DNA of 29,147 bases from Lymnaea stagnalis (GCA_964033795.1 CAXITT010000134.1:808204-837350); one strand, 5' to 3'; counted from the stretch's first letter, positions 2,545 through 26,578 are shown. Notes: a model not told the origin generated them from the sequence alone. Program-made: numbers and translations.

Positions 2545-2632
2545 CAGAGTATTGATTAACTTGATGACTTTGACGTTGTTTAGGTTTAGCTTACCACCTT
2601 GATGACTATAACCTTGTTTAGGTATAGCTTAC
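2545..2632. repeat. Tandem repeat, about 38-bp unit, 2.3 copies. It abuts the exon at 2633 and its unit contains that exon's donor (cttgat|gtaagcta on the minus strand).
   Basis: Direct reading. Confidence 0.8.
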
Positions 2633-2842
2633 CTTGATTACTTTGCTCCTCTTGTATTCGTAGTCCTGAATAAAAATTTGGCCAAGGGCATCCCCAGTAA
2701 ATAAAACATTGGCACCATATAATCTGCCTAACGAGTGAATTCCCCTGTTCACGCCTGGTAAGGAAGCATCATTGTAAGGCTTTGGCTGATCATCGTCCAG
2801 AGGTGCCAGTGAAATGTTAAAACGTTCTGGTTCATAGTTAGA
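2633..2842 (-). CDS. Exon SNYEPERFNISLAPLDDDQPKPYNDASLPGVNRGIHSLGRLYGANVLFTGDALGQIFIQDYEYKRSKVIK (210 bp, phase 0 to 0).
   Basis: Acceptor cattttgtttcag|TCTAAC and donor ATCAAG|gtaagc. ORF 2618..2851(-). Confidence 0.6.
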
Positions 2843-3156
2843 CTGAAACAAAATGATTTTTTAAATTGATTCGCCTTTTTTTAAATAGCTCTTAGACCAA
2901 CCTATACACTATTTTGGGGTAATATTTCAACTATTTTTTTGGTAATATTTGAACAATTTCGGGGTAATATTTCAACTATTTTGGGGTGATATTTTAAAGA
3001 CTTCATTCAATATCCAATAGTATTTCATTTCCATCTAATATGAGACTCAAAGATATTATTTATGAAGCGATTTGCTTTACTAATGCATTTATGTGTACAA
3101 ACATGGGTTTGAGGGTCTCGACTGTGTACATCAGAACACTGCACTATTACCGGTAC

Positions 3157-3930
3157 ATAGAATTGCCATATTGATCTATTTGTAAACAAACATTTAGAAT
3201 GGTATGGCTGCAACAAATACACAGAAGTGCCATATTGATCTATTTGTAAACAAACATTAAGAATGGTATGGCTGCAACAAATACACAGAAGTGCCATATT
3301 GATCTATTTGTAAACAAACATTAAGAATGGTATGGCTGCATCAAATACACATAAGTGCCATATTGATCCATTTGTAAACAAACATTTAGAATGGTATGGC
3401 TGCAACAAATACACAGAAGTGCCATATTGATCCATTTGTAAACAAACATTAAGAATGGTATGGCTGCAACAAATACACAGAAGTGCCATATTGATCTATT
3501 TGTAAACAAACATTAAGAATGGTATGGCTGCATCAAATACACAGAAGTGCCATATTGATCCATTTGTAAACAAACATTTAGAATGGTATGGCTGCATCAA
3601 ATACACAGAAGTGCCATATTGATCCATTTGTAAACAAACATTTAGAATGGTATGGCTGCATCAAATACACAGAATTGCCATATTGATCCATTTGTAAACA
3701 AACATTTAGAATGGTATGGCTGCATCAAATACACAGAAGTGCCATATTGATCCATTTGTAAACAAACATTTAGAATGGTATGGCTGCAACAAATACACAG
3801 AAGTGCCATATTGATCCATTTGTAAACAAACATTTAGAATGGTATGGCTGCAACAAATACACAGAAGTGCCATATTGATCCATTTGTAAACAAACATTTA
3901 GAATGGTATGGCTGCAACAAATACATAGAA
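3157..3930. repeat. Satellite-like array, 64-bp unit, about 12 copies.
   Basis: Period confirmed at 3181/3245. Minus ORFs 3025-3897 are artefacts of the array. Confidence 0.95.
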
Positions 3931-4194
3931 AATTTTATGAAAGACCAGATTAAAAGCTGCGACACTATGTTGTATGGGATATTGAAATGTGAAGCTGTTA
4001 ATTAATGCACATTGAACAGGTATCATGTACGAATTCACGAATACTCAAGGCGCATCAATATTTAGTACCAAATAAAATACTATCTCATGTTCATGGCTTT
4101 GGCTCCACTTGTACTGTATTTTTCCGGATTCCAAGACTAGCGTACGAGACAGTATCTGGTAAAAAAAACAAATGCCATAACAAAGTGAACATAG

Positions 4195-4590
4195 TTACAT
4201 TTGCTCAGGTGACTTTGGTGACAGTCGGCAAAGTGAACAGGGCTACATCTGCTCTGGTGACATTGGTGACAGTCAGCAAAGTGAACATGGCTACATCTGC
4301 TCTGGTGACATTGGTGACAGTCAGCAAAGTGAACATGGCTACATCTGCTCTGGTGACATTGGTGACAGGTGGCAAAGTGAACATGGCTACATCTGCTCTG
4401 GTGACATTGGTGACAGTCAGCAAAGTGAACATGGCTACATCTGCTCTGGTGACATTGGTGACAGTCAGCAATGTGAACATGGCTACATCTGCTCTGGTGA
4501 CATTGGTGACAGGCGGCAAAGTGAACATGGCTACATCTGCTCTGGTGACATTGGTGACAGTCAGCAAAGTGAACATGGTTACATTAGCTC
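4195..4590. repeat. Minisatellite, 48-bp unit, about 8 copies (gctacatctgctctggtgacattggtgacagtcagcaaagtgaacatg).
   Basis: Direct reading. Confidence 0.95.
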
Positions 4591-4594
4591 AGGT

Positions 4595-5660
4595 GACATC
4601 GGTGCCAAAGCCTAGTATGGTACAAGTGGAGCCAAAGCCTAATGCGGTACAAGTGGAGCCAACGCCTGGTCGGTACAAGTGGAGCCAAAGCCTGGTCGGT
4701 ACAAGTGGAGCCAAAGCCTAGTATGGTACAAGTGTAGCCAAAGCCTAGTCGGTACAAGTGGAGCCAAAGCCTAGTATGGTACAAGTAAAGCCAAAGCCTA
4801 GTATGGTACAAGAGTAGCCAAAGCCTAGTCGGTACAAGTGTAGCCAAAGCCTAGTCGGTACAAGTGGAGCCAAAGCCTAGTTGGTAAAAGTGGAGCCAAA
4901 GCCTAGTATGGTAGAAGTGGAGCCAAAGCCTAGTATGGTACAAGTGGAGCCAAAGCCTAGTATGGTACAAGTGGAGCCAAAGCCTAGTATGGTACAAGTG
5001 GAGCCAAAGCCTAGTATGGTAGAAGTGGAGCCAAAGCCTAGTCGGTACAAGTTGAGCCAAAGCCTAGTATGGTACAAGTGGAGCCAAAGACTAGTATGGT
5101 AGAAGTGGAGCCAAAGCCTAGTCGGTACAAGTGGAGTATGGTACATGTGGAGCCAAAGCCTAGTCGGTAAAAGTGGAGCCAAAGCCTAATGCGGTACAAG
5201 TGGAGCTAAAGCCTAGTATGGTACAAGTGGAGCCAAAGCCTAGTATGGTACAAGTGGAGCCAAAGCCTAGTATGGTACAAGTGGAGCCAAGCCTAGTATG
5301 GTACATGTGGAGCCAAAGCCTAGTATGGTAGAAGTGGAGCCAAAGCTTAGTCGGTACAAGTTGAGCCAAAGCCTAGTATGGTACAAGTGGAGCCAAAGCC
5401 TAGTATGGTAGAAGTGGTGCCAAAGCCTAGTCGGTACAAGTGGAGTATGGTACAAGTGGTGCCAAAGCCTAGTATGGTAGAAGTGGAGCCAAAGCCTAGT
5501 CGGTAAAAGTGGAGCCAAAGCCTAATGCGGTACAAGTGGAGCTAAAGCCTAGTATGGTACAAGTGGAGCCAAAGCCTAGTATGGTACAAGTGGAGCCAAA
5601 GCCTAGTCGGTAAAAGTGGAGCCAAAGCCTAATGTGACACAAGTGGAGCCAAAGCCTTAC
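4595..5660. repeat. Minisatellite, 27-bp unit, about 39 copies (gtggagccaaagcctagtatggtacaa). It begins at +3 of the intron after the exon at 5661.
   Basis: Direct reading. It generates many artefactual ORFs on both strands. Confidence 0.95.
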
Positions 5661-5844
5661 CTCATAAAATACTCCACAATCCAGATCAACCTTAAGCTGG
5701 TGGTAGCAATTGTTGTTGGTTCCTAAAGTTAGTCTTTTATAGTATGGATCCCAATGCATGGTCTGATACCAGGTTTCAATAGGATGCATGGTTCTAGCAT
5801 CTGAAAAGTCATCCTTGGTTCTAGCATATGAATAGTCAGAGTAC
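5661..5844 (-). CDS. Exon (R)YSDYSYARTKDDFSDARTMHPIETWYQTMHWDPYYKRLTLGTNNNCYHQLKVDLDCGVFYE (184 bp, phase 2 to 0). Not WD-like.
   Basis: Acceptor ccattgtttcag|GTACTC and donor TATGAG|gtaagg. ORF 5496..5789(-). Phase-consistent with its neighbours. Confidence 0.6.
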
Positions 5845-5869
5845 CTGAAACAATGGATGAAACTAAGTT

Positions 5870-24980: not shown

Positions 24981-25178
24981 AACAAATTGGTACAACTATA
25001 TACACAGTTACTAGAAATATTTAATGAAAATTTGTCCTGCTGAATTAATTGTTACTGGAAATATTTAATGACAAATTGGTCTAAGTATGTACATTATTAC
25101 TGGAAATATTAAATGGCAAATTGGTCCAGCTATAAACAGTGTTACTGTAAGTTTTCAATGTATGTATCAGCTAAATAC

Positions 25179-25284
25179 CTGGCCAATATTTCCAAATTCC
25201 TTGACACAAAAGACTTGTACTGTTCCACACGGGGCAGTGAAAAAAATGAGGTCTGTTTGTCTCGATTCTTGTTGGAAGATAACA
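25179..25284 (-). CDS. Candidate exon (V)LSSNKNRDKQTSFFSLPRVEQYKSFVSRNLEILA (106 bp, phase 1 to 2).
   Basis: Acceptor ttgtaaatttccag|TGTTATC and donor GGCCAG|gtattt. Phase is compatible between the 25.9 kb exon and the exon at 24500. All three frames are open here, so the frame is not independently supported. Confidence 0.35.
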
Positions 25285-25489
25285 CTGGAAATTTACAAAC
25301 ATTATCTGTATTCAATAATTATGAGGACTTCACAAATGCAATCTCAAACGATTGATGAAAATAACATACAGTAATAGCATCACATTTACTATGCCTGACA
25401 TTAATAGAGTTTCATACACTTGTTTGAATATACATAGCATGCCACAAACTATGTCACAGACTAGCATCAACATCTATAGCTTGTCAGAG

Positions 25490-25900
25490 ACCTTCCTGAC
25501 AGTCATAACTTGTCCTAGACCATCCTGACAATCATATCATGTCATAGGCCATCCTGATAATCATATCACATCATAGACCATCCTCACAATCAGAACATGT
25601 CACAAACCATCCTAAAAATCTTATCTTGTCAGACCATCCTGACAATTATATCATGTCATAGACCATCCTGACAATTATATCATGTCAGACCATCCTGACA
25701 ATCATATCGCATCATAGACCATCCTGACAATCATATCACATCATAGACCATCCTGACAATCATATCACATCATAGACCAACCTGACAATCATATCACATC
25801 ATAGATCATCCTGACAATCATATCATGTCAGACCTTCCTGACAATCTTATCATGTCATAAATCATCCTGACAAATCTTGTCACAGAACATCCTGATCCTG
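25490..25900. repeat. Minisatellite, 29-bp unit, about 14 copies (cacatcatagaccatcctgacaatcatat).
   Basis: Direct reading. Confidence 0.9.
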
Positions 25901-25990
25901 ACAATCTGTGCTTGTCATACATTTACATAGACATTTTCTAGCATGTTAATGAAATGAAGTACCTACATACATGATAGAGCAATAGAGTAC

Positions 25991-26105
25991 CTTTAGGTGT
26001 GAAGTCATCCATAATTCCAGCAACTAGCCCCATTGAACATTTGGCTTGGATGAACTTTAAACTGCAAATTATCTTTTCTAATTCTGGGAAGTTACCAGCA
26101 CATTT
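25991..26105 (-). CDS. Candidate exon KCAGNFPELEKIICSLKFIQAKCSMGLVAGIMDDFTPK (115 bp, phase 0 to 1).
   Basis: Acceptor tattttattcccag|AAATGT and donor AAAG|gtactc. Only one frame is open. Phase chains with the neighbouring exons. Confidence 0.4.
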
Positions 26106-26164
26106 CTGGGAATAAAATATTTTGTTAGTTCCTTAGAGGATCAAGAGTTAATCATCTTTAATTA

Positions 26165-26400
26165 TGATATGTAGGCTACACGATGATTGAGAAATCATTC
26201 ATTAATCAATGTAGGTTACATAAAGTTTGAGTAATCTTTAACAGTGAATGTAAGTTACATAAAGATTGGGGAATCTTTTATTAGTGAATGTAGGCTACAT
26301 GAAGAATGGGCATATTTCATCAGTGAATATATGCTACATGAAATTGGGTAATCTTTTATTAGTGAATATAGGCTACATAAAGATTGGGTAATAGTTCATT
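26165..26400. repeat. About 57-bp unit, 4 copies (taggctacatgaagattgggtaatcttttattagtgaatg...).
   Basis: Direct reading. Confidence 0.8.
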
Positions 26401-26419
26401 TTAGGTTAAATCTATGAAT

Positions 26420-26578
26420 CATCAGAAGAATGTTAGCGTTAGTTACCAAGTGATAGAAAATAATGTTAGCGTTAGTTACCAAGTGATAGGGAAGAATGTT
26501 AGCATTAGTTACCAGGTGATAGGGAAGAATGTTGGCGTTAGTTACCAAGTGATAGGGAAGAATGTTAGCATTAGTTAC
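26420..26578. repeat. 33-bp unit, about 5 copies. Each unit contains the donor of the candidate exon at 26579 (cacttg|gtaactaatgc on the minus strand).
   Basis: Direct reading. ORFs 26396..26710(-) and 26414..26707(+) are partly artefacts of the array. Confidence 0.9.

Follow-up and report, generated by a model that had tools for sequence, protein, structure and literature searches.

The architecture of a minisatellite that spans an exon-intron boundary has been familiar from human genes for decades. For the 37-bp variable number tandem repeat (VNTR) in intron 7 of human F7, minigene mutagenesis showed that all copies of the donor are functional, and that only the upstream-most one is used (Borensztajn et al. 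2006, PMC1557585). Other human donor-spanning minisatellites are those of IFI6 (6-16) intron 2, CBS intron 13, LMNB2, and PDGF intron 4; IFI6 and CBS also splice at their first two pseudo-sites, which results in small insertions (PMC1557585). The literature searched yielded no genome-wide survey of minisatellites that span such boundaries. Here we describe such arrays in the 3′ part of a gene of the gastropod Lymnaea stagnalis that resembles TEP1 (telomerase protein component 1). The window, i.e., the whole stretch of DNA analyzed, comprises 29,147 nucleotides (nt) of one haplotype (GCA_964033795.1 CAXITT010000134.1:808204-837350). All coordinates are window positions. The sequence is metazoan genomic DNA, with a G+C content of ~36%.

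In this gene, six arrays begin within an exon, 5-15 nt from its end, and repeat the donor, in 2.7 to 21 copies, nearly all of which keep the GT; three further arrays straddle acceptors. Three features of the F7/IFI6/CBS type, namely a head-to-tail intronic array, a first unit that spans the boundary, and a genuine exon boundary, are found here. The arrays of the window thus belong to a known kind, that of boundary-spanning intronic minisatellites with pseudo-splice sites. The most unusual fact about the window is the minisatellite load itself. We consider it probable that these are ordinary VNTR-like minisatellites residing in old TEP1 introns, tolerated as by-products of minisatellite formation, whose local rate is very high, and that neither a function nor nucleation at splice sites is needed to account for them. 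Their recurrence in one gene is explained mainly by the extraordinary local density of arrays, rather than by nucleation at junctions.

The TEP1-like gene and its junction-straddling arrays

The gene model is as follows:

466-26667, minus strand: TEP1-like gene, 3′ part; 26 exons and 25 complete introns, from X1 (26667-26579) to X26 (603-466), with stop codon TAA

Joined together, exons X1 to X26 give 1142 codons in a reading frame that runs without interruption to the TAA. The first TEP1-like match came from concatenated open reading frame (ORF) segments, and the model was then refined. The nearest proteins are the TEP1 of heterobranch gastropods. Identity to the Bulinus protein is 58.6% over residues 27-1011 of an earlier, 23-exon model of 1011 amino acids; it is 55% for Biomphalaria, 54% for Physella, 52% for Aplysia, and 51% for Elysia, and 64% for Candidula, only over the part that the Candidula protein covers. 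The C-terminal WD40 propellers are colinear with those of TEP1 from other animals, and the identity of 51-59% extends nearly end to end, as in an orthologue. The N-terminal TROVE/NACHT part of TEP1 falls outside the window. We looked for a convincing exon in 26668-29147 and found none; the window therefore appears to begin within the intron upstream of X1.

Exon boundaries were set by ORF continuity and orthology, not by splice-site scoring. A generic donor/acceptor weight matrix was tried and rejected, as it ranked the real sites poorly, many donors being GTAC or GTAA-C. To compare junctions, we mapped the exact structure of the TEP1 exons in Bulinus, Candidula, and Elysia. The earlier 23-exon model offers 22 junctions for this comparison; at 19 of them, Bulinus and Elysia have an intron at the same alignment column and in the same phase, as does Candidula as far as its protein extends. 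Five of the junctions that carry a donor array (of six) and two of those that carry an acceptor array (of three) are among these 19. Exons X2 to X4, between 26579 and 22198, were recovered by tblastn with the orthologues, and with them came one array at a donor and another at an acceptor. The sizes of X1 to X4 are 89/115/106/172 nt, compared with 89/115/109/169 nt in Bulinus, and together with the tblastn matches they support both the donor and the acceptor of X4.

The six donor-straddling arrays are listed below, with a slash marking the splice junction:

26425-26593, minus strand: array at the donor of intron 1; 33-nt unit, 5.1 copies, CTTCCCTATCACTTG/gtaactaatgctaacatt, 15 exon nt, GT in 5/5
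23604-24341, minus strand: array at the donor of intron 4; 35-nt unit, 21.1 copies, TGACTTTAAACTT/gtgagtgaaccactgtttacat, 13 exon nt, GT in 20/21
21004-21569, minus strand: array at the donor of intron 6; 27-nt unit, 20.7 copies, ..gaCACAG/gtaatttaaaccagttgttt, ~5 exon nt, GT in 11/11 detected
16580-16798, minus strand: array at the donor of intron 12; 54-nt unit (alternating 54/53), 4.1 copies, ACAACGCTGTCATG/gtacacaaaatgtc..., 10-14 exon nt, GT in 4/4
10570-10764, minus strand: array at the donor of intron 18; 27/31-nt units, 6 copies, AGACCTCTACAG/gtatgtgtactggtca, 12 exon nt, GT in 6/6
2549-2645, minus strand: array at the donor of intron 24; 38-nt unit, 2.7 copies, 73% identity, CAAAGTAATCAAG/gtaagctatacc..., 13 exon nt

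The original prediction, made from the sequence before any of this analysis, had named five introns of this gene that begin with an array carrying the exonic tail plus the GT donor. All five arrays are present, on the minus strand and approximately where it had placed them, each with exon tail and GT. Its count of "at least five" was an understatement, given the sixth donor array at 23604-24341 and the three arrays that span acceptors. Two of its copy numbers were too low, namely 2.3 instead of 2.7 for 2549-2645 and 3.5 instead of 4.1 for 16580-16798, while the others were close or exact (20 and 20.7, 5 and 5.1, 6 and 6). Whether the units always retain the GT was a question it had raised. Nearly all copies do; one of the 21 copies in the intron 4 array does not, and in the intron 24 array copy 2 has its GT after 3 inserted nt, and the GT is missing from copy 3.

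The donors themselves are backed by orthologues. At intron 1 the window protein reads YHL/KCAGNF and the orthologous one YHLACAGEF. The intron 4 array is the largest of the six, with most copies identical to the authentic site, and the end of exon X4 (...LTLSDFKL) matches the orthologues. The intron 6 array (donor at 21565), with only ~5 exon nt, is the weakest donor case; its junction (I3 of the earlier model) is conserved in Elysia, Candidula, and Bulinus. The junctions of introns 12 (I9) and 24 (I21) are likewise conserved in orthologues, and that of intron 18 (I15), VWIWRPLQ/ANSLACLT, is identical in Bulinus. At every array-bearing donor, those of introns 1 and 18 being examples, the orthologous proteins continue without insertion, and for this reason the ancestral, coding site is the first one in each series of repeated donors. 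By the same comparison, the array-bearing introns are old and the arrays were added later.

The three acceptor-straddling arrays are the following:

24477-24989, minus strand: array at the acceptor of intron 3; 47-nt unit, 11 copies, caatttgctattgaatatttcag/ATATCCATCTCTACTATGGCAGCA, 24 exon nt; polypyrimidine stretch and AG in 11/11
18932-19157, minus strand: array at the acceptor of intron 9; 36-nt unit, 6.3 copies, ..tctgtccacCTG/GTTGGCAAC, 9 exon nt
14256-14341, minus strand: array at the acceptor of intron 16; 31-nt unit, 2.7 copies, ..ccatgttttAA/TATGGATGTATTGT compared with ..ccatgtttcTAG/TATGGCTGTATTGT at the real site, 14 exon nt

The real acceptors of introns 3, 9, and 16 are at 24500, 18940, and 14269, respectively. 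Exon X4, downstream of the first of these, starts with (R)YPSLLWQQA, which matches the orthologues, and the acceptor junction of intron 9 (I6 of the earlier model) is conserved in three of them. In the intron 9 array, CAG is found in the first and last copies only, the internal copies having CTT (one) or CTG (four). In the intron 16 array, the upstream copies are without AG, with TAA in place of TAG. Loss of AG was considered as a rule for decoy acceptors and rejected: it holds for two of the three arrays, and the 47-nt array retains AG in all 11 copies.

Two observations concern these same introns. Intron 9 is of the GC-AG type, with GTTCAG/gcaagatag at 19343-19344, and its position is conserved in Elysia, Candidula, and Bulinus. 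The array at 14256-14341 and one in the Physella locus (L005 27570-27667) are independent arrays, with units of 31 and 41 nt, at one orthologous acceptor, before the exon that starts with YGCIVS.

Two more arrays abut a donor from the intron side:

20508-20614, minus strand: array in intron 7, starting at intron position +3; 32-35-nt unit, 3 copies
4604-5657, minus strand: array in intron 23, starting at intron position +4; 27-nt unit (53-nt higher order), ~1 kb

Both had been noticed before as partial cases starting at +3; this is correct for the former, and the latter starts one position further in.

The straddling arrays do not depend on the program used to call them, Tandem Repeats Finder (TRF). 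In a TRF-free check, 20-mers at the junctions were searched for a copy with no more than five mismatches within 200 nt, alongside 400 control intron positions. Exactly these six donors and three acceptors recur, with 0-5 mismatches. Among the controls, 0/400 recur with up to four mismatches and 3/400 with five.

Array density and the expectation from chance

TRF detects 53 distinct arrays in the 29-kb window. The 25 complete introns amount to 22,771 bp, of which 56.6% lies in 46 arrays and 9,876 bp is non-array sequence; in the 46 intron arrays, the unit has a median length of 29 nt and is present in 2-38 copies. In an all-against-all blastn comparison, the 53 consensus units yield one related pair, formed by two adjacent arrays. 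A dispersed satellite, or a tandem-repeat family carried by a transposable element, is thus ruled out, and the arrays are local amplifications because their units are mutually unrelated. On this point the original prediction, which held the arrays to be local and independent and not the spread of one satellite family, was right.

We applied the identical pipeline to nine further TEP1 loci. The proportion of intron bases in arrays is 1% in Elysia, 2% in the amphioxus Branchiostoma, 3% in Bulinus, 4% in Aplysia, 4% in Candidula, 5.5% in the clam Mactra, 8% in Biomphalaria, 11% in Physella, and 25% in the scallop Pecten maximus. The load of the window is therefore many times that of most of these species, and about twice that of the scallop.

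To estimate how many junctions would be straddled by position alone, each array's founding unit was placed uniformly on non-array intron sequence, with an exon overhang of less than one unit allowed. Placement was restricted to non-array sequence because the founding duplication must arise there. When units are placed across the whole gene, 3.38 straddlers are expected per side, and 6 are observed at donors (P=0.11) and 3 at acceptors; for both sides together, 9 are observed and 6.8 expected (P=0.22). When each array is kept to its own intron, the expectation is 4.63 per side. A null based on present-day intron length was rejected. It predicts ~1.5 straddlers per side, and the data would look significant against it, but it wrongly counts other arrays as target sequence. 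The verdict on an excess over chance thus varies with the null model, and the a priori test shows none (P=0.11). That is, random placement shows that density accounts for the junction hits: because 57% of the intron DNA is array, founding units straddle junctions by position alone. The original prediction had proposed junction-anchored seeding as a special, repeated process. With 3.4-4.6 straddlers per side expected at random, compared with the 6 donor and 3 acceptor cases observed, this proposal is not borne out, and a mechanism specific to donors does not predict that acceptors are straddled too.

The same null predicts the other loci reasonably well. Straddlers (donor plus acceptor) number 2+1 in Physella, 2+0 in Biomphalaria, 4+1 in Pecten, and 1+0 in Branchiostoma, and 0 at the other five loci; that is, they turn up where arrays are common. 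One of the Physella donor cases is a perfect 2×23-nt duplication, AAGTATCAGTTAG/gtaagaatga. No straddling arrays are found in the orthologous introns of Elysia, Candidula, Bulinus, and Aplysia. A comparison of the same introns between related species had been proposed earlier, and its outcome at these TEP1 loci is that the introns are shared and the straddling arrays are absent, which suggests that the arrays are lineage-specific.

Pooled over the ten loci, with placement across the gene, donor straddlers number 15 compared with 8.9 expected (P=0.03); with placement within introns, 12.2 are expected (P=0.23). Acceptor straddlers number 5, and the probability of that few is 0.11 (gene-wide) or 0.010 (within-intron). 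For the nine loci without the window, 9 donor straddlers compare with 5.5 or 7.6 expected (P=0.10-0.35), which is not significant, and there are 2 acceptor straddlers (P=0.08-0.013 for that few). For the asymmetry of 15 donors to 5 acceptors over the ten loci, p=0.04. In sum, donors are straddled 1.2-1.7 times as often as position alone would predict, an excess that is not robust, and acceptor straddlers are under-represented.

Two observations at these loci stand on their own. In intron 32 of Pecten maximus TEP1 (L008 31294-33095), a 26-nt unit, ctcacacag/gtaaggttttagtcagt, is repeated in ~70 copies from the exon-intron boundary, and is the longest reiterated-donor series observed. Arrays in Biomphalaria intron 27 (L006 17435-17539) and Pecten intron 25 (L008 25724-26019) lie at the donor after ...FGVFEK, where the exon tail holds a short internal direct repeat; by our estimate, such same-junction arrays in two species are about as many as chance predicts.

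Several points weigh against density as the whole explanation. Five of the window's six donor overhangs measure 12-15 nt (donors 26579, 24329, 16785, 10753, and 2633), for which a scan statistic gives P=0.007, post hoc, and overhangs of 4-15 nt number 6 compared with 1.24 expected (P=0.0009, also post hoc). Overhangs of ~13 nt are found again in Physella (L005 intron 5) and Biomphalaria (L006 intron 27), and the pooled gene-wide test gives the donor excess just described. In addition, the sample is one gene per species, and the use of the first donor and of the last acceptor is read from protein homology only.

These overhangs and the pooled excess are also what speaks for the leading alternative, according to which splice donors are true mutational hotspots for founding duplications, either through a process coupled to transcription or splicing, or through slippage from the junction, with the left breakpoint ~12-15 nt inside the exon. 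Array starts within -15 to +10 of donors, which number 8 compared with 2.8 expected (P=0.006), point in the same direction, as does the 15:5 asymmetry. However, the thresholds for overhangs and starts were picked after the data had been seen, in a window pre-selected for this very pattern; the a priori and the within-intron pooled tests show no excess, and the orthologues alone are not significant. In Pecten, where the overhangs are ~9, 9, 9, and at least 24 nt, there is no cluster at 13 or within 12-15 nt, the breakpoints share no motif beyond 3-4 nt of arbitrary microhomology, and the acceptors are straddled too. The asymmetry is equally well explained by selection against decoy acceptors. 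Thus, we regard a hotspot at donors as unlikely, and its general form as quite unlikely, namely that in minisatellite-prone invertebrate genomes splice donors are preferred birth sites of tandem duplications, with that same left breakpoint and with transcription/splicing-coupled DNA marking at 5′ splice sites. The weak donor-side excess and the cluster at 12-15 nt, which is weak and post hoc, remain outside the density explanation.

Origin of the arrays and use of the repeated splice sites

The structure of the arrays is consistent with an origin in ordinary tandem duplication. Array ends have the form ABA, e.g., CTTC...CTTC in intron 1 and TGA...TGA in intron 4, with direct repeats of 3-4 nt, and the fractional part of the copy number is 0.0-0.2 in 26 of the 53 arrays (p=0.003). 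Direct-repeat-mediated duplication from ABA to ABABA has been described in yeast deficient in rad27/FEN1 (PMC5677150). The likely origin of each array is a local tandem duplication, 20-55 nt long and formed between short direct repeats (a few nt) through a replication-slippage or flap-type error; more slippage or unequal exchange may have made the array grow later. Under the heavy array load, several founding units would have straddled exon-intron boundaries by position alone. Slippage-type duplication had been suggested beforehand as a plausible source, and the ABA ends, short direct repeats, and near-integer copy numbers agree with it. Nothing in the data supports the RNA-mediated process that had been offered as a second option.

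Larger two-copy tandem duplications also occur within introns, at 17229-17590 and 22790-23219 (units of 172 and 214 nt, 96-98% identical); the duplication process is therefore not confined to units of 20-60 nt. The window further contains, at 16940-17071 and 28184-28304, two copies of one foldback or MITE-like element rich in the palindromic motif ggccgaaagtcatttttaactttcggcc, each partly tandem-duplicated. In the unique sequence of intron 17 there are two stop-free stretches, 13488-13718 (minus strand, 77 codons) and 13534-13851 (plus strand, 106 codons), which resemble a decayed transposon-derived ORF.

Tolerance of these arrays by selection is plausible. A donor-straddling unit would leave the complete exon and the authentic donor upstream, and the copies of the exon tail and GT would go into the intron. 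To judge from protein homology, the first donor copy would define the mRNA, and the downstream copies are probably silent pseudo-sites or give minor isoforms, mostly destined for nonsense-mediated decay (NMD). Most copies in the donor arrays equal the authentic site from -12 to +10, and discrimination between them must therefore be positional. An acceptor-straddling unit, in turn, would place decoys upstream of the real acceptor, a riskier arrangement. Acceptor decoys are expected to be more harmful, in agreement with their scarcity and with the loss of AG from the decoy copies of two arrays out of three, the 47-nt array being the exception. Selection would then tolerate extra donors better than extra acceptors, and would act as a filter on ordinary tandem duplications.

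A second alternative is that selection favors the repeated splice sites for some function, either as arrays of U1 sites that serve as intronic splicing enhancers or protect against premature polyadenylation, or as regulated alternative donors that add in-frame peptide repeats. The presence of GT in nearly all copies would agree with it, as would the in-frame, stop-free insertions that pseudo-donors could give at intron 1 (all four copies, with 11-aa insertions), at intron 12 (from the first copy), and at intron 18 (from the first copies), and human IFI6 and CBS do use their first two pseudo-sites (PMC1557585). However, the GT is retained no better than the rest of the unit, in arrays that are 86-97% identical and for that reason young. 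If pseudo-donors were used, premature stops would result in three of the six arrays, those of introns 4, 6, and 24 (with any pseudo-donor in intron 4). A consistent pattern is thus absent, and there is no sign of selection for coding use. In-frame periods were considered as a signature of such selection and rejected, since the units of 33, 54, and 27 nt are accompanied by others of 35, 38, and 31 nt. Moreover, the orthologous introns of other heterobranchs are without such arrays, the orthologous proteins carry no insertions there, and donors are hit no more often than position alone predicts. We therefore hold selection for function to be very unlikely.

That the pattern is an artefact of mis-assembled repeats or mis-placed exon boundaries is highly improbable: the copy numbers do rest on one assembled haplotype, and no point in favor was found beyond that, but variants occur in order among the copies, which also have a higher-order structure (e.g., 54/53-nt units in alternation, and 27/31-nt units), an unbroken ORF and intron positions conserved in three to five other species fix the boundaries, and the same architecture is found in the independently assembled genomes of Physella, Biomphalaria, and Pecten.

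If the arrays are ordinary minisatellites tolerated in old introns, as we think, their mechanistic weight is small, given that they look like tolerated by-products. The gene is nevertheless a test bed for positional splice-site choice outside mammals, with six tandem-donor series of up to 21 copies and three tandem-acceptor series. The 57% load points to a genome, or to a region, where short tandem duplications arise at an unusually high rate, and the tally of 15 donors and 5 acceptors is a simple, testable statement on which splice signals tolerate duplication.

Comparison with known systems

Duplication of a splice signal has also been described as a route to intron gain, in which an exon segment that contains AGGT is duplicated (PMC4974935, PMC2891723). 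The raw mutation is the same, i.e., a short tandem duplication that copies a splice signal. In intron gain, however, the new intron arises inside an exon, whereas the introns of the window are ancestral and the copies lie inside an existing intron. Intron gain is ruled out here, since all array-bearing introns are present in orthologues, with position and phase matching Elysia, Bulinus, and, where covered, Candidula, and with X4 placed by tblastn and exon sizes.

The direct-repeat-mediated duplications of rad27/FEN1 yeast mutants share structural features with the arrays. In both cases the unit measures tens of nt and has direct repeats of 3-4 nt at its ends, and the copy number is near-integer with a short terminal partial copy. 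The likeness to the yeast mutants is one of array structure.

The human minisatellites that reiterate a donor are those most like the arrays described here. In IFI6, CBS, LMNB2, and PDGF, as in the window, the donor is reiterated in the intron by an array that spans the boundary, and the small insertions of IFI6 and CBS have a counterpart in the in-frame insertions that would be possible at introns 1, 12, and 18. These human examples are single cases per gene, in a genome of low minisatellite density. The likeness to F7 extends to the first monomer, which spans the exon-intron boundary (4 exon and 33 intron nt in F7) and carries the authentic donor, followed by identical donors, and to the size of the unit, 37 bp in F7 and 27-54 nt in the window. 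For F7, use of the upstream-most donor was shown experimentally, whereas in the window it is suggested by protein homology. The window gene differs from F7, finally, in belonging to a gastropod and in carrying six such arrays, which reach 21 copies and include 5-15 exon nt in the unit.

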